Shown: positions 3,204-47,780, numbered from the stretch's first letter. The stretch is 64,000 nucleotides of DNA from an uncultured Pseudomonadales bacterium (GCA_964447905.1 CAYUUK010000005.1:279-64278), one strand, 5' to 3'. Numbers and translations are program-made. The notes: generated by a model from the sequence alone, not told the origin.

Positions 3204-4001
3204 ATGTCAGTTTCCCTTCCCACAATTTCGCTGGTGATGCCAAGTTACAACCAAGTGCAGTTTTTGCGCGGTGCACTGGAAAGTGTGTTGCAGCAAGGAT
3301 ATCCAAAATTGCAGTTGATTGTGCGTGATGGTGGCTCTACTGATGGCTCGGTAGATGTCCTGCGCTCGTATGGCTCGCGATTCCAGTGGGTTTCTGAGTC
3401 CGATGGTGGGCAAACCGCAGCTTTGAATGCGGGCTTTGCGCAGGCTACTGGAGAGATTATTGGTTTTTTGAATAGTGATGATCTTTTACTCCCCAATACA
3501 CTCTGGGAAGTAGCGGGACTGTTCCGTCTGTTTCCAGATTTGAACTGGGTAACTGGAGACTATCAGATTATTGATGAACATGGACAGTTGCGAGATCCGC
3601 TGATCAAACAGTATAAAACTTGGCAACGAAGTATGTTTCGCCATAGCCCTGCACTTTTTCCGCTCATTCTCGGAGTAAATAATCCGATTGTGCAACCAAG
3701 TACTTTTTGGCGCCGAGATATTCATGATCAAGGTGCTCGCTTACGCGAAGATCTCGATCTGGTAATGGATTACGAGTGGTGGTGGCAGCTGTATCATGCG
3801 TATGGATCACCGCTTGTGGTGCCGTATGAATGGTCAGCATTTCGTGTGCATGCTGACTCAAAAGGGGGGAAGTACTTTGCCGAGCGCCTCAATGAGCAGC
3901 TGGAAGTGGCTAAAGAGTACCAGATTTCAGCAGGACTCCAAAATATTCACGCTTTTCACAATCAAGTTGTGACCTGGATGTATGAGCGCGGCATTTCGTG
4001 A
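3204..4001 (+). CDS. glycosyltransferase family 2
   Basis: N-terminal LVMPSYNQ...VRDGGSTDGS, plus D-x-D-containing NSDD, is a GT2 signature. Confidence 0.8.
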   Translation: MSVSLPTISLVMPSYNQVQFLRGALESVLQQGYPKLQLIVRDGGSTDGSVDVLRSYGSRFQWVSESDGGQTAALNAGFAQATGEIIGFLNSDDLLLPNTLWEVAGLFRLFPDLNWVTGDYQIIDEHGQLRDPLIKQYKTWQRSMFRHSPALFPLILGVNNPIVQPSTFWRRDIHDQGARLREDLDLVMDYEWWWQLYHAYGSPLVVPYEWSAFRVHADSKGGKYFAERLNEQLEVAKEYQISAGLQNIHAFHNQVVTWMYERGIS

Positions 4002-4014
4002 TGCGTTGAGAAAT

Positions 4015-5004
4015 TTACTCTGAGAGCGTGGCCTGCACTTGAGCCTCGATCCAGTTATAGGTGCGGCGCAAGCCTTCTTCTAAACTGATTTCTGGTTCCC
4101 ACTTGAGGACTTCTTTCAGCTTGGTGTTGTCTGAGTTTCGGCCGCGTACTCCTTGAGGACCCTCAATGTGTTTTTTGGAGATCTCGACGCCAGCGATAGT
4201 GGCAATAATGTCGGCAAGTTCATTGATAGTTACCATGCGGTCTTGCCCGATGTTGAGCGGCTCAGAATACTCGGAGTTCATAAGCAGGTGTAAGCCGGTG
4301 ACGGCATCGTCTACGTAACAGAAGGAGCGAGTTTGTTCACCGTCGCCCCAGATTTCAATTTCGTGGTTGCCGGTGAGTTTTGCGGTGGCGATTTTTCGAC
4401 AGAGAGCTGCTGGGGCTTTCTCGCGGCCACCTTGCCAGGTTCCCTCAGGACCAAAAATATTGTGGAAGCGAGTTACTCGCGTTTCGATTCCATAGTCCTG
4501 CTGGTAGTAATGACAGAATCGCTCAGAAATGAGTTTTTCCCAACCATAGGCGTCTTGTGGGTTGGCTGGATAGGCATCTTCTTCTTTGAGGGGCTGCAGA
4601 TTGGTGATTTCTTGTTTTTCAACAGGGTAGATACAGGCTGAAGAGGTATACAGATATTTTTTGACGCCATTTTTCTGTGCGGCATCTAAAGTGTGCGTAT
4701 TTATCAGAGAGTTGTCATGCAAAATGACAGCATCGTGGCTGGAAATGTATCCCATCCCGCCCATATCAGCGGCTAAGGCATAGACTTGATCAATGTCTTT
4801 GGTCGCGGTAAGTGCGGACTCTTTTTCCCTCAGATCGAGCAGTAGAAACTCATCGGCTACGGTCTCAGAGAATTCTGGCTTTTTGATGTCCACTCCACGC
4901 ACCCAGTACCCGCGTTCTTTGAGAAAAGCAACTAAATGGTGGCCAATAAAGCCTCCAGCACCGGTGACTAAAACTCTGGTTGATGCAGTATCTTTTGTGG
5001 ACAT
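4015..5004 (-). CDS. NAD-dependent sugar-nucleotide epimerase/dehydratase (extended SDR)
   Basis: VLVTGAGGFIGHHL Rossmann motif and YTSSACIY catalytic-region motif. ATG at 5004 with GGAG 5 nt upstream. The track ORF starts at TTG 5016. Confidence 0.8.
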   Translation of the reverse strand: MSTKDTASTRVLVTGAGGFIGHHLVAFLKERGYWVRGVDIKKPEFSETVADEFLLLDLREKESALTATKDIDQVYALAADMGGMGYISSHDAVILHDNSLINTHTLDAAQKNGVKKYLYTSSACIYPVEKQEITNLQPLKEEDAYPANPQDAYGWEKLISERFCHYYQQDYGIETRVTRFHNIFGPEGTWQGGREKAPAALCRKIATAKLTGNHEIEIWGDGEQTRSFCYVDDAVTGLHLLMNSEYSEPLNIGQDRMVTINELADIIATIAGVEISKKHIEGPQGVRGRNSDNTKLKEVLKWEPEISLEEGLRRTYNWIEAQVQATLSE

Positions 5005-5035: not shown

Positions 5036-5626
5036 TTAGCGAGAGAAACCTTCGTACGCAACGCGGGGAATGATGCCAGCCTTATCAACTGGCCAGTAGC
5101 GTAGAAAGGCGCGACCAACTATATTTTGTTTGCCAATAGGTCCCCACACGCGCGAGTCTGAGGAAAAAGGGCGGTTATCGCCAACTACGAAGTACTCGTT
5201 TTCACCCAAAAATACTTCCCGTCCGCCAGCGGTAAACTCACCGGCTTTGGTGTAGTTTTCAGGAGGAATGTAGGGTTCTGGAAGCGCTTGACCATTAATG
5301 TAGATAGCATTGTCGTGCACTGAGAGGGTATCGCCGGGCAAGCCAATGACACGTTTAATAAAGTCACAGCCAGTCCCCTGTGCACAACCAGCCGCCTCAG
5401 GGGCATGAAACACTACCACGTCGCCGCGTCGTGGTTCGCCAGTTTGGTAGGACACTTTGTCGGTGAGGACATACTCACCGCTGAGAAAAGTGGGTTCCAT
5501 GGACTGTCCATTTACCTGGTGTGGTTGCATGAAGAACAGATACACCACCAAAAAAATGGAAAGAGCAACGACAACTGTTTCAACAATGTCGAGCATGGCA
5601 CCGCTTATGCGCTGGAAAATACTCAT
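5036..5626 (-). CDS. lepB: signal peptidase I
   Basis: GQSMEPTF (catalytic-Ser box) and GDNRPFSSDSRVWGPI box are hallmark SPase I motifs. Internal Met at 5626 chosen to avoid overlapping the divergent neighbour. Confidence 0.85.
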   Translation of the reverse strand: MSIFQRISGAMLDIVETVVVALSIFLVVYLFFMQPHQVNGQSMEPTFLSGEYVLTDKVSYQTGEPRRGDVVVFHAPEAAGCAQGTGCDFIKRVIGLPGDTLSVHDNAIYINGQALPEPYIPPENYTKAGEFTAGGREVFLGENEYFVVGDNRPFSSDSRVWGPIGKQNIVGRAFLRYWPVDKAGIIPRVAYEGFSR

Positions 5627-5701
5627 ACAGCGTATTGTGGCACGCTCATGAGAGGCATGCAATACGAAAAGAATGCTGCTCCATGGCGTATAATAGGCCG
5701 C

Positions 5702-6439
5702 ATGCAAGTTCATGCAGTGCGAACACCTCAGATTGTACAGGCCGGTGATGATTTGAAATCGATTCTTCGGGAGAGTATTGATTCACTTCCTGAGCGTTCG
5801 GTGGTAGCCATTACTTCCAAGATCGTGAGTTTGGCCCAAGGTCGAGTTGTTGCTTCGAACACAGTTCAAAAACACGATCTCATTCGCCAAGAAGCCGATT
5901 TGTATACCGAGCCAACATCTTCCAAGTACGACATAATGCTCACGGTCACTGATGGCCACCTTTGTGTCAATGCTGGCATCGACGAATCAAATGCCAGTGA
6001 AGGCTATGTGTTGTGGCCAGAAGATTCTCAGCAGGTAGCCAACGAAGTATGGCAGTTTTTACGTGAAGAGTATGGGGTGAAAGAGCTGGGCGTCATTATT
6101 ACCGATAGTCGCACTCAGCCGCTCTATTGGGGAGTTATTGGCGCTACTTTGGCCCATTGTGGCTTTAAAGCGCTTAATACTCTGATCGGCACACCAGATT
6201 TATACGGTCGAGAAATGCGTATGACGCAGGAAAGTGTGTACCAAGCACTTGCGGTTGCTGCGGTATTTGAAATGGGCGAAGGCGCACAGCAAACACCTCT
6301 GGCTATTATCAGCGACATTCGTCAGATTACTTTTCAGAATCGGCCACCGACGCAAGAAGAGTTAGCCGCTCTGCACATTGAGCTCGAAGATGATGTCTAT
6401 GCGCCAATTTTGATGAAAGCTGAGTGGAAAAAACTTTAA
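5702..6439 (+). CDS. CofE-like protein (F420-0:gamma-glutamyl ligase family fold)
   Basis: Motifs ITSKIVSLAQGR, ITDSRTQP and GVIGATLAHCGF resemble the CofE/FbiB N-terminal ligase family. Start set at MQVHAVRT, 75 bp from the divergent lepB. Confidence 0.5.
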   Translation: MQVHAVRTPQIVQAGDDLKSILRESIDSLPERSVVAITSKIVSLAQGRVVASNTVQKHDLIRQEADLYTEPTSSKYDIMLTVTDGHLCVNAGIDESNASEGYVLWPEDSQQVANEVWQFLREEYGVKELGVIITDSRTQPLYWGVIGATLAHCGFKALNTLIGTPDLYGREMRMTQESVYQALAVAAVFEMGEGAQQTPLAIISDIRQITFQNRPPTQEELAALHIELEDDVYAPILMKAEWKKL

Positions 6440-6471
6440 AAAGAAAGTATAAATAGTAAAAAAGGAGTTTT

Positions 6472-6744
6472 GTGGCAAGAGGAGAAGGTGTTTCTGTAAC
6501 ATTTCGTTACACGAAAGATGGTAAAGACGGTGAAATGGTGTACGACGGTACGAACTCTGTAGCTGAGTACCAACAGGCGAAGCGCAAGTTTGAAAACCTT
6601 GTTGGACAAGTGTCGACACTCTCTAGATTTCGTGTCAGTTTTGAGAAAAATGGCAAAGTGGTTGATAGCTTTTTCAAAGCTGCTACGGAGTTTTACGGAC
6701 TTCCTAGGTCTGAGGCCCAAGAATTAGATGAGGATAACAGATAA
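6472..6744 (+). CDS. small hypothetical protein (90 aa)
   Basis: GTG start 6 nt after a perfect AAGGAG Shine-Dalgarno. No family recognised. Confidence 0.45.
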   Translation: MARGEGVSVTFRYTKDGKDGEMVYDGTNSVAEYQQAKRKFENLVGQVSTLSRFRVSFEKNGKVVDSFFKAATEFYGLPRSEAQELDEDNR

Positions 6745-6761
6745 TCCGGTACAATACCCCT

Positions 6762-7958
6762 ATGTCTGATTTACCAAAACATACTTTAACGCCTGAATTG
6801 GCTTTACGCCGCGGCGTTGATCAGATCTTGCCTGATGCCGATGCACTGGCAAAGGAGATGAATCAACGCTCTATTCGGTTGTATTTAGGCATCGATCCAA
6901 CGGGAAATCAGCTGCATCTGGGCCATGCGGTGGTACTGCGAAAGCTACAGCAGTTTGCCGAACTTGGGCACGAAGTTATCTTGCTCATTGGCAATGGCAC
7001 CGTTAAAATCGGTGATCCCACCGGCAAAGACAAAACTCGTCCCATGATTACCGACGAAGAAATCGAAGCTAACTTCCACAACTGGAAAGAGCAGGCGAGT
7101 ACGATTCTTGATTTTGACAAAATCACTATTCGCCGCAATGGTGACTGGTATGACGAGATGAATTTCTCTGAGCTGATCCGGTTGTTTTCCAATATGACCG
7201 TGCAGCAGCTTATGGAGCGTGATATGTTCCAGGAGCGTTTGAAAAACAACGCTCCCATTCACGCTCACGAAATTCTCTACCCAATTTTGCAAGGATATGA
7301 CTCTGTGGCCATGGAAGTGGATCTCGAGCTTGGTGGCACCGACCAAATCTTTAACATGATGGTCGGCCGACAGATGCTCAGGAGTATGAATGACCGTGAA
7401 AAATGGGTGCTGGCTGTGCCACTGCTCATTGGTACCGATGGTCGCAAGATGGGCAAGTCACTCGGTAACTTTATTGCTCTCACTGAAGCCCCACGCGACA
7501 TGTACGGCAAGCTGATGTCAGTTACCGACGAAATTATTACGCAGTACTTCCGTTTGCTGACCGACGTGGCCGACGAAGAGATCGACGACATGGACGCACA
7601 GATGGCGAATGGTGCGAACCCGATGGAGTTTAAGAAGCAGCTTGCTTTCACGATTACGGCTGATCTGCATGACACGTCGGCCGCTGAAGATGCCCAAGCC
7701 TACTTTGAGCGGACGGTGCAGCAGGGTGAGGTGCCGAAGAATATGCCGACACTTTCTCTTTCTCAGCAAGAAATCAGTGTTCTCGATCTTGTGATGGCCT
7801 CACAAGTTCCTGGGAGTCGCAGCGAGGGACGACGACTGATCGAACAAGGCGGGGTGAGTGTAAATGACGAAAAACTCACCGACCCCACTGCCGAAATTTC
7901 ACCTCAGTCCGGAGCCGTACTAAAAGTAGGAAAGCGAAATTGGTTTCGCATTGAGTAA
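6762..7958 (+). CDS. tyrS: tyrosyl-tRNA synthetase
   Basis: Class I HIGH motif as HLGH, KMSKS as KMGKS, and a C-terminal S4-like domain (GGVSVNDEKL). About 400 aa. Confidence 0.9.
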   Translation: MSDLPKHTLTPELALRRGVDQILPDADALAKEMNQRSIRLYLGIDPTGNQLHLGHAVVLRKLQQFAELGHEVILLIGNGTVKIGDPTGKDKTRPMITDEEIEANFHNWKEQASTILDFDKITIRRNGDWYDEMNFSELIRLFSNMTVQQLMERDMFQERLKNNAPIHAHEILYPILQGYDSVAMEVDLELGGTDQIFNMMVGRQMLRSMNDREKWVLAVPLLIGTDGRKMGKSLGNFIALTEAPRDMYGKLMSVTDEIITQYFRLLTDVADEEIDDMDAQMANGANPMEFKKQLAFTITADLHDTSAAEDAQAYFERTVQQGEVPKNMPTLSLSQQEISVLDLVMASQVPGSRSEGRRLIEQGGVSVNDEKLTDPTAEISPQSGAVLKVGKRNWFRIE

Positions 7959-38115: not shown

Positions 38116-39480
38116 TTATCGAAAAGCAACGGTGTCAGGTTTTCCAAATGCTTGGTTGAAACTACGCGCAAACTCGGCTGCATTAGCAAACCCAGAATCA
38201 GAACCTTTTGGCAGTGCCATTTCAAAAAAGATAAGTACCGATTCAAAGTCTAGTCCATATTTTTTACAGTAGGACTGTATTTTGTCCTCATGTAGGTTCC
38301 CAACACTGCCCAGCATAATATGTTGAATAGCAATACCAACTGGTGATACATTCTGCATCGTTGGCGGTGGGTCTATAGAAAGCCAATAGTTTTGGCCTGT
38401 AATGAGTTCGTGCAGTATGATGGCCACAGCAGAGCAATCGTAAGCCGCACCAGTATTCAGAGAACTGTATCCCATGCTTCCTCGTACATCACCTTCTTCA
38501 ACCGGATGGGCTAAACTGGCCAATCCAAAATCAAGAAGAACGGTTTTGTGGTTATTTGGATCATTTATCAACTTCTCATTTTTTAGCAGTGGAAGTATAT
38601 GCACCAGGATATTCTCAGGTTTGATATCACAGTGAATGAGTTCCATATATTGTCCGCGTTGGAGAGTATTAGCTACATTTCCACCACCGATAACTCGACG
38701 CACTTTTGGTGTGTGAAGCTCTTTTAATGTTTGCAGAATAGAGGAGACATATGCGTGTAGGTTCTCGGGATGAAGTATTCGCTCAATTACTTGAAGAGGA
38801 ATAGACGGATCTCGATCAATAATTTGGCGCAGGGTAGGATATTCATGAGTATCAAAGTACTCCATGATCAGAACTTTTTCTTCTGTGCTCGTCTTTCCAA
38901 AGTAGTAATATCTAGAGATTCCAGGTGTGCCGAGATGGGTTTCTCCTGCCAAAGTGTAGGCCTCGTGCATAATTTCTGGCACTTCCTCTTCTTTCCGATC
39001 AGGTCTGGTAATTTTTAGACCAACTCTTTTTTTTAGATTAAGACAAAACGCTGGGAGAAACTGTGCTGCCCCACCTTGGCTCATCATGTTCTTATCGTAA
39101 ATTACGATTGGGTTAGGAATTTTACGATCTGTATAAGCACTGGCAGATGAAAGTTCAGAGTTCAGAATCCAAGATCGGTCTTTATCGACGATTGAAAGGA
39201 CCAAAGAGCTTCTTCTTTCTCTATGAAAAAGAGTTATGAGCTCCTGCTTTTGCGATTGCTCTAAACGAGCAGCTTCGATTGCTCTTTTCAATTCAGGACT
39301 AACTTCCTGTAAGAACCGATTAAATTCTCGTTCCACACGAAATACCCCCTCAGGTGGTTTGGGAGGTTTGGTAGTGTCGAGAGGCTCGCCAACTTCTGGA
39401 CGAAGTTGAGATGTTCGCAGAGGAGTGTTTCTATCTCCTGGCCTTAGCCTCTCTATAATTTCACCGATTCGTAAAGCCAT
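38116..39480 (-). CDS. eukaryotic-like Ser/Thr protein kinase with a novel ~170-aa N-terminal region
   Basis: Catalytic loop HCDIKPENIL and DFG motif LLDFGLA, but no canonical G-x-G-x-x-G or VAIK motifs. The start codon lies 4 nt downstream of the tRNA-Lys 3' end. Confidence 0.7.
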   Translation of the reverse strand: MALRIGEIIERLRPGDRNTPLRTSQLRPEVGEPLDTTKPPKPPEGVFRVEREFNRFLQEVSPELKRAIEAARLEQSQKQELITLFHRERRSSLVLSIVDKDRSWILNSELSSASAYTDRKIPNPIVIYDKNMMSQGGAAQFLPAFCLNLKKRVGLKITRPDRKEEEVPEIMHEAYTLAGETHLGTPGISRYYYFGKTSTEEKVLIMEYFDTHEYPTLRQIIDRDPSIPLQVIERILHPENLHAYVSSILQTLKELHTPKVRRVIGGGNVANTLQRGQYMELIHCDIKPENILVHILPLLKNEKLINDPNNHKTVLLDFGLASLAHPVEEGDVRGSMGYSSLNTGAAYDCSAVAIILHELITGQNYWLSIDPPPTMQNVSPVGIAIQHIMLGSVGNLHEDKIQSYCKKYGLDFESVLIFFEMALPKGSDSGFANAAEFARSFNQAFGKPDTVAFR

Positions 39481-39634: not shown

Positions 39635-40813
39635 ATGGACAACAGCTCTCCTCTGGCACATTTGCTCCGCCCGACAACTTTGAATGAAGTAGTCGGACAG
39701 TTGCACCTCATTGGCGAAGATAAGCCGCTCCGCCGATTGGTAGAAAAGAACGATGTGTACTCCATGATTTTCTGGGGACCACCAGGTGTGGGAAAAACCA
39801 CACTGGCAAGAATTCTAGCCAAGGCGAGTAACCGACCATTTATTGAGCTCTCGGCTGTTTCTGCCTCGAAAGCTGATGTGCGGGCCGTAATCGAAGATGC
39901 TCGTGCTCCGCAAAAAATGCTTACACAAACACATGTGCCACCAGTACTTTTTCTCGACGAAATTCATCGTTTTACGAAAGCGCAGCAAGATTTTCTATTG
40001 CCCTACGTCGAAGACGGCACAATTATTCTCATTGGAGCTACTACCGAGAATCCCTCTTTTGAAGTAATTTCACCGCTTCTGTCGCGGATGCGAGTGTATG
40101 TACTCGAAGAGCTTTCTCTCTCAGATTTGGAAACATTAGCAAAAAAAGCCTTTCACAGTCTTGGGATTGAAGACCCAAATGATGATGTTGTCCGAGAGGC
40201 GATTCGGCAAGCGAACGGCGATGCCCGACAACTGCTCACACTCCTTGATCATGCCTGGCAAACCTATGGTGAGATTACCAGTGAACAGCTGGAAAGCATT
40301 GGCCACAACTTGGTTCGTTTTGACAAGAGCGGTGAACAACACTACGACACCATCAGTGCCTTTATCAAAAGCATGCGCGCCAGCAATGTGGATGCGGCAC
40401 TGTACTATTTGGCACGGCTGGTCCATGGTGGGGAAGACCCCAAGTTTATTGCTCGGAGAATGGTGATTTTTGCTAGCGAAGACATCGGTTTAGCGCAACC
40501 AACTGCCCTCGTGGTGGCGAACGCCGTTTTTGATGCAGTGCACAAAACAGGATACCCCGAGGCACAGATAACGCTCGCTCACGGTGCAGCGTATTTGGCG
40601 CAAGCCAAAAAAGATCGTTCAGCCTATGATGCGTATTTTGCGGCACTCAGAGATGTAGAGAGTACTGGAAACCTACCAATACCAAAAAAACTTCGTAATG
40701 CTCCTTCAAAGCTTATGAAAGAGCTGGGGTATGGTGAAGGATATGACATGTATCCAGAGCCAGGTGAAAGTTTATTGCCAGAAAAGTTACAGAAGAAACG
40801 ATACTTTTCGTAG
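39635..40813 (+). CDS. rarA: replication-associated recombination protein A (AAA+ ATPase)
   Basis: Walker [12 protein letters not shown]; N-terminus [15 protein letters not shown] typical of RarA/MgsA. Confidence 0.85.
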
Positions 40814-40853
40814 AAATCTTTCCAGATACTTGATCCTATGCTACAGTGCTTGC

Positions 40854-41318
40854 ATGAAACAAACGTTTATTCTCACTACAGTACTTATGAGCGGCTTTTT
40901 GTTTGCTGGCTGTAGCATCACCACATCTGATACCATACCAACACAAAACACCGAGGACACTTCTATGCAAGAATCAACTCAACCCGAAATCAATGAACTG
41001 ATCATTGAGGACATCACTACCGGTGAAGGTCAAACAGCCGAGGCCGGAGACATGGTGACGGTGCACTATACCGGCACACTCATGGATGGCACTGTTTTTG
41101 ACTCTTCACACAATCGCAACACTCCGTTTACCTTTGAACTCGGAGCCGGCCAAGTGATTGAAGGCTGGGACCAAGGTGTGCAAGGTATGCAAGAAGGTGG
41201 TACTCGTAAATTAACTATTCCATCTGACATGGCTTACGGCGAGCGAGGTGTTCCTGGTGCTATCCCACCAAGCGCACCGCTGGTCTTTGAGGTTGAGCTT
41301 TTAGAAGTTGAAAAATAA
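40854..41318 (+). CDS. FKBP-type peptidyl-prolyl cis-trans isomerase, lipoprotein
   Basis: Lipobox LFAGC. FKBP core [16 protein letters not shown]...F.LG.G.VI.GWD.G..GM..GG.R.L.IP..AYG. Confidence 0.85.
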
Positions 41319-41320
41319 CT

Positions 41321-43831
41321 CTAGAGTACTGATTGAATCAATTTACTGGCTTGTGCGGTAGCATACAGATTTTCTAACGAGTAAGTGCTTGATTCTAGAG
41401 TGCTGTTCAAGTGCAATATTCTCTGATAATCCTCTAGTGTAAGGGGTTGGATATCGAGGAGTGCTTCTTTTTCTGACTGAATTTGCTCAATTTTTTCCTC
41501 TAGTTGAATACTTCTTTGAACTAAATGTGTGTCTAATTTTTGCAGTACTGTAGTGAGCTGACCTTTGAAAGCAGTCACCGCCTCTGGGTATTCCTCAGAA
41601 TGAAGAATTGAGTATGGTGACGTAGCAGTTTTTTCTCCGAGAAGTGCAAGAAGTGTGTTTTTACATTCTTCTGCTGAGAGAATTGATGATTCACGAGTAT
41701 CCTCAATTTTCCCACTTGCTAAAGTTGCTGCTGTCTTTGCCAGAACTGCGTGTATATGAGAAAGATCAGTAATATACGATGATTGAATGAGCTTCTGAAG
41801 TTTCTCTGGCTGTACAGTGTCACTGAGCATGTCGAAAATGTGTTCTAAAATTTTGCGAACGGTTGGAGTAGCAAGAACTCCACTGAAATCTTCTCTAATT
41901 TCCTTTTTTACTTCTTTTTCTGTTTTTCTTCGTTTTGCAACAGTACGAACTATGAGTGCTGCAGCAAATAAACCTGATGAAGCAACCAGATCAACTGGAG
42001 AACCTTCAGCATTGCTCGGTGGCCTCATCTCAAGCATAGACAAGTCTTCTCCCGGATTCGGCGTATATGGTGTGGCATCAAAGTATAAAAAGTGACCATT
42101 GGGGAGATGCATGACACCATTGAGATGTCCTACTCGGCTGTAAAGGCCGTTACCGTATTGGGCGTAGTGAGAACCTGTTTGCATGTATACGCGTACGTCA
42201 AAAGGAGCAAAAAAGTCGTCAACAATTTGATTTGCGATAGTGCAATAAAATGCTGGTAAGCCATATATGCTGTTGTAGCCATATCCAGCTAAGATGGGGT
42301 AGCGTGTAGCAATATCTGGATGCTCATAGAGTAAGCTATAAAAATGCTCAGATTGTATAAAGTTGACAAGCTCAATTAAGCTACTTTGAACTATCTCAGA
42401 GTAGCGGTCGTGATACTCAGTGACAGTCATAGGTGAGCTTGTGCCTTGAGAAGTTCTCCAGTCTTGATACAGCTGTTCTAATTGATTGTGCACTTCTTGG
42501 TGCATGGACATAATTTCTGGTGCACTAGCGAGAACTTCATAGAGTTCAGCGAGAGCTTCACGCTCTTCAAGGGTCTCGAAGGCGGATGAAAATATACCTG
42601 AATTTGGCGTGTACCGAGAACCATATGTTCCAAGATACTCTATTATCGCTGGAGCGATTGTGTGACCACGATCTGGTCTGGCAACGACCAACACTTCTGG
42701 TGAAGTAGTAACGTTTGAAGCGAGAGCAAGATTTCCGGGACCTGGTAAGAACAGCTGCATACCGGTGGCTTCATTTGTGAGAGGTACTATTTCTCGCTCT
42801 GATTCCACGAAAATTTGAGCGATATAGTATCCAACCGGAGGAAATATATTGCTTGATCGGGCAGTACTTCTGAAGGGCGAGTACACCCACTCATCTGGTT
42901 GAGGAGAGTATGTTTCCGCTGATATTTCTTCTACATACGTAATCTTTGATTCAGGAAAAGGAAGATAAGGTTCGGCTTCCTCACCAGCCTGGCGGTTGTA
43001 CCACATATCTGGAAAAAAGCCTAAGTATGTGCCGGAATCTGCAGAAGCAAGCGATTCTGGCACATGGTAGAGATCTGCGCGTCGGACAGTTGGTTGGCTC
43101 CTTAGAGCCTCTCTATCGAGTTCTCTAAGGATATCATCATATATTTCAGCACTTGATGGGGGTTCTTCAGCCTCACCATTTCTACTGGCGCCGAATATCA
43201 TTACACCACTTGCGAGTATCGTGAAGAAAATCATTAAGTAGATTACATAACGAAATTTTTTCCGGAGAAAATCATGTTCACTTTTTACAAAATCTCTTGT
43301 TTCAGAAATTTCTTTTTCAAATTCAGCTCCGAGAACTCCCATTTCCTTGATTCTTTTTTGGATAACATGATCTTTTGCGTGTGTACTTAATAAGTAGTGC
43401 GTGCCTCCCAATAGAAGTAATGATGTGAGGGCGCTTGACATATCTTGTCTACTATCAAGTATTTTAATGGCGCTCTCAATGCTTGAGAGTTCAAAGACAA
43501 CATATAAAGCAACGAGGAGGGCAGCTGTTGTTACAGTACCCGCAGAAGAAGAATGTGTCGCATATTCCGAGCGATCAGTGTCTCTTGTGACTTCTAAGAC
43601 GTCAGAGATAGGCGCATTTAACGCCATTTGATTATTTAAACCATAAAGGCCATAGATTCTGGGAGTGAAAAACTGTTCTAAGAACTCCATCTGTCTATAT
43701 CGCTCACGAACAAACGCAATTATCTCTTCAGATTTTTGGCTGGTAAACCCAGAAGAAAGAGGTAGTTTGTGAAGAACTTTTCGAGCTTTCTCAGATTGGT
43801 CAATCGAATCAATAGTTCCAATTCGCGACAT
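41321..43831 (-). CDS. membrane protein with a transglutaminase-like (TgpA-type) Cys-His-Asp core and a C-terminal coiled-coil
   Basis: Three TM segments. Between TM2 and TM3: FYCTIANQ ... GHLNGVMHL ... FLYFDATP, matching the order and spacing of the transglutaminase-like catalytic triad. The start may instead be the internal Met at 43690. Confidence 0.4.
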   Translation of the reverse strand: MSRIGTIDSIDQSEKARKVLHKLPLSSGFTSQKSEEIIAFVRERYRQMEFLEQFFTPRIYGLYGLNNQMALNAPISDVLEVTRDTDRSEYATHSSSAGTVTTAALLVALYVVFELSSIESAIKILDSRQDMSSALTSLLLLGGTHYLLSTHAKDHVIQKRIKEMGVLGAEFEKEISETRDFVKSEHDFLRKKFRYVIYLMIFFTILASGVMIFGASRNGEAEEPPSSAEIYDDILRELDREALRSQPTVRRADLYHVPESLASADSGTYLGFFPDMWYNRQAGEEAEPYLPFPESKITYVEEISAETYSPQPDEWVYSPFRSTARSSNIFPPVGYYIAQIFVESEREIVPLTNEATGMQLFLPGPGNLALASNVTTSPEVLVVARPDRGHTIAPAIIEYLGTYGSRYTPNSGIFSSAFETLEEREALAELYEVLASAPEIMSMHQEVHNQLEQLYQDWRTSQGTSSPMTVTEYHDRYSEIVQSSLIELVNFIQSEHFYSLLYEHPDIATRYPILAGYGYNSIYGLPAFYCTIANQIVDDFFAPFDVRVYMQTGSHYAQYGNGLYSRVGHLNGVMHLPNGHFLYFDATPYTPNPGEDLSMLEMRPPSNAEGSPVDLVASSGLFAAALIVRTVAKRRKTEKEVKKEIREDFSGVLATPTVRKILEHIFDMLSDTVQPEKLQKLIQSSYITDLSHIHAVLAKTAATLASGKIEDTRESSILSAEECKNTLLALLGEKTATSPYSILHSEEYPEAVTAFKGQLTTVLQKLDTHLVQRSIQLEEKIEQIQSEKEALLDIQPLTLEDYQRILHLNSTLESSTYSLENLYATAQASKLIQSVL

Positions 43832-45339
43832 ACCTTCATCCGGAGGAGTTTCGTATGGCGTTTTTTTGAGTGGTGTTTCTGAATATCCGGTTGAATTATT
43901 TTGCTCACAATCTGCAAAAACAGGTTTTTTCGCGGAGACGGAACTCCTACCGTAGCGAGAGAAAAAGCTACTAGGCTAACTTTTTCGGTAGCTGATAGGG
44001 AAAACCACGTGGGCCCAAAAAGCTGAGTGATCCACCTAGAGTTTTGTGCTTCAAAAAGTGATTGGAGTTTTTCCGAGAGATGATCGTAGTTTAGTGAAGC
44101 TTTGCCATGTTCACTAGCACGAGAGGTGATGAATGCCTCATAGAGAAGCGGGCTCAAGGTATGGAGTTTTTTCCACGGATCACTTAATCGCTGTCTCTCA
44201 TTGAGAATTGGTTGGCGCAATGGGTCATAATTCTCTAGTATTGCATCTAAAGCTCGGTACTGATTTCGCCGTAGTTGCAGTGTTTTTTGTCGGATTTCGG
44301 CTTGAAGTTTTCGTTCTTGTTCAACTACTTGATCCCGGATTTCCTGCCATGGATGAGCGCTATCTGCTCTTGCGGCAATGCGACTTCCATGGGCTATGAG
44401 AGCAGCATTTCCACCTGTTACAGCTCGTGAATCTAAGGGGATTTTTGTTCTTGCTTTAGTGATTTGATCAGTGCTAAAAATACCTTGAGGAATGGGAAGT
44501 TGTTGCAGTTGTGATTCTCCTAGATAGGCTGGTAAGAAAAAATCGGTCCAGTATTGAGAAATGAGAGCATTGTTCCTACTTTCTTGGCGCGTACCATTTT
44601 TTTTAATCAGTTCTCGAACGACTGGTGGTATAAATTCATGAGGAGCATTTTTGTTCAGTGCAGCTAGGTAGTAGGGAGCGTGCTGATTTGTGGCAGAAAA
44701 ATACCCATACAAATAACCAAAAATACAAATGGATTCTATAAATGTTTTACTGCTTTTTGTATTCCCATTGCAATATGCCTGAAGATTTGCCTCAAAATTT
44801 CTAAATACCTCCTGGGTGTACCAGTAAGAAAGGGGGTTGAGCATTTCTCTCGGCATAATTCGAGAAGTAGTTTCTTTCTTCATAAATTTAAGAGTGTTCG
44901 AGATATCATTACTGAAAGAAACGTAGCAGTATGAAAAAAGTAGTTCTTGTTGATCTTTACTGACCTCTTGATCAGGTAAGTGGTGGGAAATTATTTTTAT
45001 GAGAGCTGGTCGTAAGATACTTAAGATAGTTTCTATTGGTATTTTTTCAATTTCTTTATCAGTAAAAGTATTGTGTGGTAGTTTTTTCAGTATGTAGCGG
45101 AAAACGAGACGAGCTTTGGTAGGTGCTTTATTGGTGTATTGGTAGAGTACATTGATGCACTCGTCGAGTGACATGAGACTCACCCTCTTTAAGAAGTATT
45201 CTTCGAACTGTGAAGTGAGCAGCGCACGAAACAAAGGATTATCTAGTGTCTGCAACGGTATTTCGCTTGCTAGATCTCGCGGTTTTTTCTCTTTTTTACC
45301 GAGTAAAGAGCTGATGATGTTTTCACGTATTCTAGCCAT
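43720..45339 (-). CDS. hypothetical 539-aa soluble protein, no recognisable domain
   Basis: Long ORF, codirectional with and overlapping or abutting the TgpA-like gene. Lower GC than its flanks. Confidence 0.45.
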   Translation of the reverse strand: MARIRENIISSLLGKKEKKPRDLASEIPLQTLDNPLFRALLTSQFEEYFLKRVSLMSLDECINVLYQYTNKAPTKARLVFRYILKKLPHNTFTDKEIEKIPIETILSILRPALIKIISHHLPDQEVSKDQQELLFSYCYVSFSNDISNTLKFMKKETTSRIMPREMLNPLSYWYTQEVFRNFEANLQAYCNGNTKSSKTFIESICIFGYLYGYFSATNQHAPYYLAALNKNAPHEFIPPVVRELIKKNGTRQESRNNALISQYWTDFFLPAYLGESQLQQLPIPQGIFSTDQITKARTKIPLDSRAVTGGNAALIAHGSRIAARADSAHPWQEIRDQVVEQERKLQAEIRQKTLQLRRNQYRALDAILENYDPLRQPILNERQRLSDPWKKLHTLSPLLYEAFITSRASEHGKASLNYDHLSEKLQSLFEAQNSRWITQLFGPTWFSLSATEKVSLVAFSLATVGVPSPRKNLFLQIVSKIIQPDIQKHHSKKRHTKLLRMKVCRELELLIRLTNLRKLEKFFTNYLFLLGLPAKNLKR

Positions 45340-46800: not shown

Positions 46801-47508
46801 ATGCGCAGACTTTCACGACGAGCCGTTTGGGCGAGTTCCCTGGCATTACTGATTGTAATGTCCTACATCGGAACCGCACAGGCGCACGTTTTGACTACGA
46901 TGAGTAGTCAGGTTCCCCCACAAACAAGCGAAAATCGTCTCCTCGCACAAGGTTCACCTGCGGAATCCCGCGTGGAACAGCGCGAGGCAACTCGACAGCA
47001 GCTCAATGACTCACAAGATGCGCGGCAAGAAAACCGGGCCATCAGAGTGGATGAGCTCCAAGAGATGCGCGATGAAGCCAAGGAAAGAGTTGCTGAGCAG
47101 CGCGAAGACCGGCAAAATACTCGCCAAGAACGCCGCGATTTTATTACTGAGCAACACGCCGATAGATTAGAGTATCGCTTCGGCGTCTACAGTGATCGAC
47201 TCAGCGATATTATTGTTCGACTGGATGCGAAGCTCACTGAGCTTGAAGCTGCTGGCTCACCCGTTGATGCCGAAAAGGCACAACTGGAAGCCGCAAAAGA
47301 CCTGCTGGTAGACGCTGATAATGCCGCTGCAGATGCGATCGTTCGCTTCTTGGCAATTGAACCGGCTGAGTATGAAACCCAGCGAGCCCAAGCGCTCGAG
47401 GCCAGAGATCTTGCGCAAACAGCGCGTGGTCAGTATGCCGCGGTCAGAATGAGTTTGCAGGAGATCATTCGTTCTCTCAAAGCACAAATGGCAAGGAGTG
47501 AATCATGA
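46801..47508 (+). CDS. secreted, highly charged (R/E/Q-rich) coiled-coil protein
   Basis: Signal peptide ...AQAHV. AAGGAG Shine-Dalgarno. No family. Confidence 0.45.
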   Translation: MRRLSRRAVWASSLALLIVMSYIGTAQAHVLTTMSSQVPPQTSENRLLAQGSPAESRVEQREATRQQLNDSQDARQENRAIRVDELQEMRDEAKERVAEQREDRQNTRQERRDFITEQHADRLEYRFGVYSDRLSDIIVRLDAKLTELEAAGSPVDAEKAQLEAAKDLLVDADNAAADAIVRFLAIEPAEYETQRAQALEARDLAQTARGQYAAVRMSLQEIIRSLKAQMARSES

Positions 47509-47780
47509 ATATGACCAGTTGGAGACGATATCTCGCAGTAGCAGTACTCGTTTTTGCTCTCATTTTAGGTACGGGTCTTCTATACTCACAGCGCGCCAAT
47601 GCTCCAGTACAACCACCTAGAGGCAATTCGCAAGAGTTTAGCCAAATGGATATGTACCAAACTTCTGAGCCAGCGGACGAAAACCTCAACAGAGAACTCT
47701 CTAGTGAGACCGACCTAGAAGCTCTTGAGCAAGACCTGCAAAACACAGTCATTCTTGACGAAGACTTCAGCGACCTCTAG
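47505..47780 (+). CDS. small single-TM acidic protein (91 aa)
   Basis: ATGA overlap with the upstream gene. One TM. Confidence 0.35.
   Translation: MNMTSWRRYLAVAVLVFALILGTGLLYSQRANAPVQPPRGNSQEFSQMDMYQTSEPADENLNRELSSETDLEALEQDLQNTVILDEDFSDL

Follow-up and report, generated by a model that had tools for sequence, protein, structure and literature searches.

The closest structural relative of the protein considered here is TgpA (PA2873) of Pseudomonas aeruginosa. TgpA, 668-688 amino acids (aa) long and encoded in the operon PA2875-2872, consists of a DUF3488 membrane domain of five helices, a periplasmic domain (residues 180-544) and one further helix; its transglutaminase activity was measured in vitro with CBZ-Gln-Gly and biotin-cadaverine (PMC3507681). 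Other membrane-associated transglutaminase-like enzymes thought to act on surface proteins are the tgm product of the bifidobacterial PFNA cluster, in which the partners are kinase, FN3, AAA-ATPase and DUF58 genes (PMC8430577), and EsrD of oral Actinobacteria, for which a covalent attachment of the surface sensor EsrA to the envelope has been proposed (PMC13622651). We analysed a 64,000-nucleotide stretch of DNA deposited under the name of an uncultured Pseudomonadales bacterium (GCA_964447905.1, CAYUUK010000005.1:279-64278; the whole stretch is hereafter called the window), in which two overlapping open reading frames (ORFs) occupy positions 41321-45339 of the minus strand. Together they very probably constitute a single disrupted gene of ~1,339 codons, which encodes a TgpA-like membrane protein of an unnamed family and is frameshifted in this genome.

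The locus is not a new kind of system; the novelty lies in the family, which is TgpA-like but divergent and has a new arrangement of domains. The predicted ectodomain resembles the periplasmic domain of TgpA (6G49/6G4H) in fold, and in both proteins this domain is placed between membrane helices. The identity to TgpA is only 9-11%, and the PF01841 hidden Markov model is blind to the family. DUF3488 (PF11992) was not matched by the protein or by any of the 39 family members; in its place there is a soluble cytoplasmic domain of ~500 aa with three helices, and a coiled-coil tail of ~200 aa is added. In common with the Transglut_core (PF01841)/BTLCP superfamily, the family has a helix with the nucleophilic Cys followed by a beta-sheet with His and Asp, as well as the motif pattern G-[FY]-[YF]-C ... 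G-H-x-N ... D-x-T-P. It differs from that superfamily in falling below every curated profile threshold, in its own invariant residues (Y498, L500, T587 and P588), in a P-x-P-G-E-D-L-S tail and in its unique architecture. The genomic setting was compared in ten contexts, namely the window locus (22 kb around the gene) and nine homologue loci. No MoxR, DUF58 or vWA gene, and no operon of that type, was present in any of them, as had been claimed for the window locus alone, and no neighbour was common to the loci. Compared by description only, the PFNA and EsrD systems have conserved partner genes (the esr cluster in the case of EsrD), whereas this family has none.

The two ORFs of the initial annotation were confirmed, at 41321-43831 (836 aa) and 43720-45339 (539 aa), with an overlap of 112 nt. 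That annotation had described them as a two-gene unit, in which the transglutaminase-like membrane protein is accompanied by a soluble protein of no known family. An exhaustive HMMER search with the 789-aa product as the query against 1.84 billion cluster representatives (cut-off E <= 1e-3) returned 38 relatives (22 at E <= 1e-10), nearly all of which were 1,200-1,400 aa in length. The downstream product, encoded by the 836-aa ORF, matched residues ~600-1150 of these proteins (P0003-P0040), while residues ~25-498 of the 539-aa ORF matched the N-terminal residues ~20-510 of the same proteins, with E-values from 2e-21 to 4e-9 for 16 of them. The N-terminal domain and the transglutaminase half are fused in more than 30 homologues, for which reason we rejected an operon in which a novel gene accompanies the transglutaminase gene. 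A −1 shift, or one added A, at a run of seven A residues (A7) yields a joined protein of 1,339 aa, a length typical of the family, and this protein aligns with the family without a break across the junction (predicted junction peptide …HHSKKTPYETPPDEG… / …QKHHSKKTPYETPPDEGMSR…). The matches of the 539-aa ORF to homologues stop at its residues 481-498. Its last 46 residues have no counterpart in any homologue and the other frame of the same stretch (43720-43860) aligns with the family; these residues therefore represent out-of-frame read-through. In the public gene calls (539 aa and 789 aa) the downstream ORF starts at M48, and the 47 residues ahead of this position also align with the family and, being homologous to it, are coding. 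The overlap of the ORFs is the footprint of a frameshift within one gene. What had been taken for a partner is the cytoplasmic N-terminal part of that gene's own product, and two "hypothetical proteins" without a family are replaced by one gene that the public calls had hidden. The features of the gene are listed below, with the residues of the downstream half numbered as in the 836-aa ORF.

41321-45339, minus strand: probable single disrupted gene of ~1,339 codons spanning both ORFs (homology of both ORFs to the same proteins; continuous alignment of the fusion)
43861-45339, minus strand: N-terminal cytoplasmic all-alpha domain, residues 1-493 of the 539-aa ORF (true frame)
43861-43867, minus strand: frameshift site, A7 on the coding strand and T7 on the plus strand (three-frame translation; DNA)
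43720-43860, minus strand: out-of-frame read-through tail, 46 codons and a stop, overlapping the true frame of the downstream half (end of the matches; alignment of the other frame)
43388-43546, minus strand: hairpin of the first and second membrane helices, residues 96-148 (hydropathy at 100-118; AlphaFold2 helices 96-115 and 128-148; paired segments in most homologues)
43190-43246, minus strand: third membrane helix, residues 196-214, with RKKFR ahead of it on the predicted cytoplasmic side (hydropathy 2.34; end of the model helix 170-215)
41996-43189, minus strand: predicted extracytoplasmic domain, residues 215-612, sharing the fold of the periplasmic domain of TgpA
42014-42358, minus strand: transglutaminase/papain-like core, residues 492-606 (conservation; predicted structure)
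42242-42244, 42125-42127 and 42077-42079, minus strand: putative catalytic codons of Cys530, His569 and Asp585, respectively
41939-41995, minus strand: fourth membrane helix, residues 613-631, followed by AKRRKTEKEVKK on the predicted cytoplasmic side (hydropathy; homologues)
41321-41938, minus strand: C-terminal cytoplasmic, helical, coiled-coil-like tail, residues 632-836 and the stop (AlphaFold2 helices 749-792 and 799-835, predicted local distance difference test score (pLDDT) 80-90)

The assignment of the ectodomain was based on residue conservation and predicted structure. The motifs FYCTIANQ, GHLNGVMHL and FLYFDATP, previously reported to follow the transglutaminase order, are located at residues 528, 568 and 581. 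C530, H569 and D585 do not vary among the 39 family sequences, nor in a 34-sequence alignment of the core only. Mean column identity in the 39-sequence alignment is 15%, and the only other invariant columns are Y498, L500, T587 and P588. The AlphaFold2 model obtained with this alignment had a mean pLDDT of 73.7, with values of ~85-97 in the ectodomain (residues 240-610). Secondary structure assignment by DSSP placed Cys530 as the first residue of the helix 530-544, followed by strands 547-559, 562-565, 568-575 (containing His569) and 580-584 (directly preceding Asp585); as modelled, a helix starting with Cys and followed by strands with His and Asp is the papain/transglutaminase arrangement. 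When the model was compared with solved structures using Foldseek, 6g4h (E 3.2e-4) and 6g49 (E 1.9e-3) were ranked first and second with a probability of 1.00, both representing the periplasmic domain of P. aeruginosa TgpA, and no other solved structure scored below E 0.1. The 6G4H structure was the top match by two methods, and the fold likeness spans most of the crystallised TgpA domain, extending beyond the ~70-residue catalytic core. These data agree with the TgpA-like call of the initial annotation, including the expected fold match and the conservation of the three residues. The correspondence of C530/H569/D585 to the TgpA catalytic triad is putative and was judged from conservation and secondary-structure context. 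Sequence profiles gave no comparable signal: PF01841 was not matched at E <= 10 by the protein, ectodomain or core, nor at E <= 0.01 by any of the 39 members, and Pfam, NCBIfam, PHROGs and PADLOC returned nothing significant for either ORF or its sub-regions. Searches of PDB sequences with phmmer and hmmsearch (full protein, core, and family and core profiles) gave coiled-coil noise or spurious 'YYC' matches to antibodies. As judged from the predicted structure, the family is a very divergent structural relative of TgpA, outside Pfam's membership criterion.

The membrane topology had been described as two transmembrane helices, an ectodomain, a third helix and a long cytoplasmic tail. Hydropathy analysis revealed strong hydrophobic segments at residues 100-118, 196-214 and 613-631, in agreement with the three helices proposed; a weaker segment at ~128-148, backed by the AlphaFold2 model and the homologues, adds a fourth membrane helix that had been missed. 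In the family the typical pattern consists of two adjacent hydrophobic segments, one more ~60-80 residues further on and a last one 80-90 residues past the Cys motif. The ectodomain is bracketed by the third (196-214) and fourth (613-631) helices, with RKKFR before the former and KRRK after the latter, and the positive-inside rule would place both termini in the cytoplasm and the Cys-His-Asp domain outside. The tail was modelled as long paired helices, as expected, and its comparison with PDB and Pfam gave only coiled-coil noise. The N-terminal cytoplasmic domain of ~500 aa is all-helical and had no match among solved structures. The protein would thus comprise, from the N- to the C-terminus, an all-alpha cytoplasmic domain of ~500 aa, a short variable linker, a two-helix hairpin, a cytoplasmic helix, the third membrane helix, an extracytoplasmic TgpA-fold domain of ~400 aa, the fourth membrane helix and a cytoplasmic coiled-coil tail of ~200 aa.

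The position of the frameshift was determined by three-frame translation over the overlap. In the upstream frame the A7 run is read as tcA AAA AAA cgc (DNA: CAC CAC TCA AAA AAA CGC), and the downstream frame picks up at ACG (43861-43859). The upstream frame is translated as …IIQPDIQKHHSKK followed by RHTKLL…, and the downstream frame as …ETPLKK followed by TPYETPPDEGMSRIG…. The A7 run, which falls in the poorly conserved inter-domain linker, is the sole homopolymer in the 15-codon stretch where the homology changes frame. At the aligned position the DNA of four homologues (L082, L083, L088 and L090) was read; each is a single ORF and lacks an A-run at this site, and most other members are full-length single proteins. 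Two further members of the family were split. In one of them (L087:2116-6127, junction ~3283-3320) a 19-bp sequence duplicated perfectly in tandem (ACAACATAGATCACACAAT twice) separates ORFs of 403 aa and 936 aa within the N-terminal domain. In the other (L092:3055-6905, junction ~4955-4965), from the NCBI metagenome-assembled genome (MAG) GCA_040006915.1 (JBDTWD010000001.1), ORFs of 654 aa and 634 aa meet at an A6 run (GCC AAA AAA TCA) right ahead of the third membrane helix, and the frame is restored by a −1 shift or one added A, as in the window copy. Since the three splits have three different breakpoints, all of the slippage type, they point to recurrent mutational disruption and not to a conserved recoding signal; the gene, which is rich in lysine and poly-A, looks as if it is recurrently disrupted by mutation rather than split by design. 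The window contains 34 A/T runs of at least seven nucleotides (seven or eight long), ~3.5-fold more than the ~10 expected from base composition. Judging from this excess, the genome carries many slippage-prone sites inside genes.

The nearest genome found was a Candidatus Woesebacteria MAG (JAJOJK010000002), in which the enolase, RarA-like ATPase and FKBP genes are 80%, 87% and 74% identical to those of the window, and the order of the kinase, RarA, FKBP, enolase and two small downstream genes is preserved. Only ~30 bp separate the FKBP stop from the enolase start in that genome, and nothing resembling either ORF is present there. As FKBP and enolase are directly adjacent in the relative, the 4-kb block of the window is an indel located exactly between them, which accords with the inserted appearance noted earlier. 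The lower GC content noted for the two ORFs was also confirmed (42.0% for the 836-aa ORF and 40.5% for the 539-aa ORF, versus 47-53% in the flanking genes). At third codon positions their GC content (GC3) is 0.33-0.36, the window median being 0.45; with the fifth and eighth lowest ranks of 51 ORFs, it is low but not extreme. This low GC3, together with the scattered and context-free distribution of the family, favours gain of the gene. No direct or inverted repeats were found at the borders of the 4-kb block, and the results of promoter and terminator scans were at chance level. Because viral contigs held no relatives, a phage origin is not supported.

The family is rare and has no Pfam or NCBIfam name, being represented by 39 clusters at 50% identity among the 1.84 billion representatives. 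A word-indexed search of 5.8 billion proteins recovered only the two proteins themselves and, with the family alignment, only the 539-aa ORF. A locus search with a 6-sequence ectodomain alignment identified three metagenome loci. Some copies of the gene are found in clearly variable blocks. AAA_14/DUF4143 ATPase genes adjoin the family gene on two unrelated contigs (L082:9904-11049; L095:1-999 and 5555-6766), with Prim-Pol, HTH and SpoVG genes upstream in L082, which may reflect a mobile or defence-island setting. Several copies are located beside genes for large secreted proteins (CLIPPER/DUF11, dockerin, beta-propeller). On another contig (L094:2885-17313) the family gene lies in a ~14-kb block between map and infA of an otherwise conserved secY-adk-map-infA cluster; the block also contains a 1,151-aa orphan, a DEAD helicase, a Gly-rich 786-aa protein and a pilin-like gene. 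The family is not claimed to be confined to Patescibacteria, since one homologue contig carries carotenoid genes.

The split in the window copy most likely arose through ordinary slippage during replication of a laterally acquired accessory gene, leaving a recent pseudogene or a crippled copy. One A would have been lost from a poly-A run (now A7) in the variable linker, interrupting the gene. Normal translation would then produce the N-terminal domain with a 46-residue nonsense tail, and the membrane/enzyme half would be made only via rare −1 slippage, addition of an extra A at transcription or internal re-initiation. From general knowledge of slippery sites, low-level −1 slippage or transcriptional A addition could provide some full-length product, so the copy is probably inactive or only leakily expressed. 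Several observations weigh against parts of this interpretation. Both ORFs are otherwise intact (1.5 and 2.5 kb) and are split within the inter-domain linker at a perfect in-frame slippery heptamer, which may indicate a tolerated split or a regulated shift. The two assemblies available for the locus may stem from the same reads and thus have a homopolymer miscall in common. With one syntenic relative only, gain here is indistinguishable from loss there and the direction of the event is not proven. In addition, no sequence profile ties the family to Transglut_core, the transglutaminase call being based on a structure predicted from 39 sequences and on residue conservation.

Alternative explanations of the split were weighed against the same data. 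A sequencing or assembly miscall, by which the real genome would carry A8 and an intact 1,339-aa gene with no biological split, would be in keeping with the open state of both halves and with the fact that a single base in a homopolymer is the commonest consensus error; the L092 copy likewise breaks at poly-A. A second assembly of the locus (Logan, SRR7048223), however, has the same A7, with two differing bases and no gaps in 22,370, which makes an assembler artefact unlikely. Among the 34 long A/T runs of the window no similar frame breaks were noticed elsewhere, no systematic check having been made, and we consider a miscall unlikely overall. Regulated decoding or phase variation, in which −1 ribosomal frameshifting, transcriptional slippage or a heritable A7/A8 change sets the ratio of the N-domain-only product to the full-length protein, appears quite improbable. 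It would explain why A_AAA_AAA forms a perfect X_XXY_YYZ slippery heptamer in the upstream frame, at which a −1 shift restores the family frame exactly within a variable inter-domain linker, and why the L092 copy needs the same shift at AAA AAA; family genes are also rich in poly-A tracts (e.g., 17 runs of at least seven in P0004). Yet runs of this length are common genome-wide, tract length is identical in the two assemblies compared, and the 19-bp duplication of the L087 copy points to random disruption. The site is conserved in none of the four homologues read, and the 90 nt 3' of A7 form no stimulatory RNA structure (−15.7 kcal/mol, z 0.46, with 129 of 200 shuffles folding as well). A conserved programmed frameshift was ruled out on these last two grounds. 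It is a long shot that the poly-A tract is a genuine on/off switch (A7/A8 phase variation or −1 slippage) of a surface protein-modifying enzyme in an ultrasmall Patescibacteria (candidate phyla radiation) bacterium, with the ~500-aa domain as a new module coupling the cytoplasmic state to an extracellular transglutaminase. If this were true, the recurrent poly-A and duplication splits would reflect selection for on/off behaviour in an envelope protein exposed to hosts or phages.

We also give little credence to a functional two-subunit arrangement, in which the soluble N-domain and the membrane/transglutaminase half would both be expressed and act together, as the two-gene unit of the initial annotation would imply. 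Both ORFs are long and intact and are divided at the linker, an ATG (43831) is present 30 nt past the A-run, and M48 was used by the gene callers. Neither candidate restart is preceded by a good Shine-Dalgarno sequence, though, and the upstream product would carry the 46-residue nonsense tail; against the arrangement stand also the more than 30 fused homologues and the three split copies, which break at three places, one of them within the N-domain.

Cys530 would attack an envelope or surface protein, either at a peptide bond or at a glutamine side chain. The resulting thioester acyl-enzyme would then be resolved by a lysine amine (cross-linking, anchoring) or by water (deamidation, cleavage/proteolysis). 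The ectodomain would be regulated or scaffolded by the two cytoplasmic parts, the N-domain and the coiled-coil tail. Precedents for such a function are the in-vitro activity of TgpA and the anchoring role proposed for EsrD. Transamidation and hydrolysis appear about equally probable. That the same protein has a different chemistry, acting as a cysteine protease, amidase, deamidase or non-catalytic binding module, is a realistic possibility, albeit on balance a doubtful one. The transglutaminase-like fold is common to many hydrolases, and a papain-like classification places PF01841 among peptidase families (PMC10318531). The bifidobacterial tgm product has been described as presumably a cysteine protease (PMC8430577), and acyl transfer to water and to an amine are indistinguishable from the present evidence. 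Pointing the other way, TgpA, the closest structure, has transglutaminase activity in vitro (PMC3507681), and the absolute conservation of all three triad residues disfavours a non-catalytic role. The analysis provides exact residues for mutation (C530, H569 and D585) and intact homologues suitable for expression (e.g., P0003 and P0004). A TgpA-type Cys-His-Asp domain in a new architecture extends the theme of membrane-anchored transglutaminases to a Patescibacteria genome, a group whose envelope biology is almost unknown.

Several features of the neighbouring genes were recorded. The gene at 38116-39480 (minus strand) encodes a Ser/Thr protein kinase-like product (Pkinase, E 9e-11), and its GC3 (0.338) equals the frameshifted gene's in being low. 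Its identity to the Woesebacteria counterpart is only 31%, compared with 87% for RarA and 80% for enolase, and it appears to be fast-evolving. A PFNA-type link between this kinase and the family gene was ruled out, as the relative without the family gene has the kinase too. The two small genes past enolase (46801-47780, plus strand) are 52% and 45% identical to those of the Woesebacteria relative and have no family assignment; the larger product (235 aa) combines an N-terminal hydrophobic segment with a charged helical region, and the smaller one has 91 aa. The FKBP gene (40731-41318, plus strand) was called as 117 aa in the public annotation, and its true start is likely at 40854, corresponding to Met42 of the long ORF. 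Read from Met42, the product begins with a lipoprotein-type signal with a lipobox, and the 74% identity to the Woesebacteria relative includes this N-terminal part. The FKBP protein is probably a surface-anchored lipoprotein peptidyl-prolyl isomerase.

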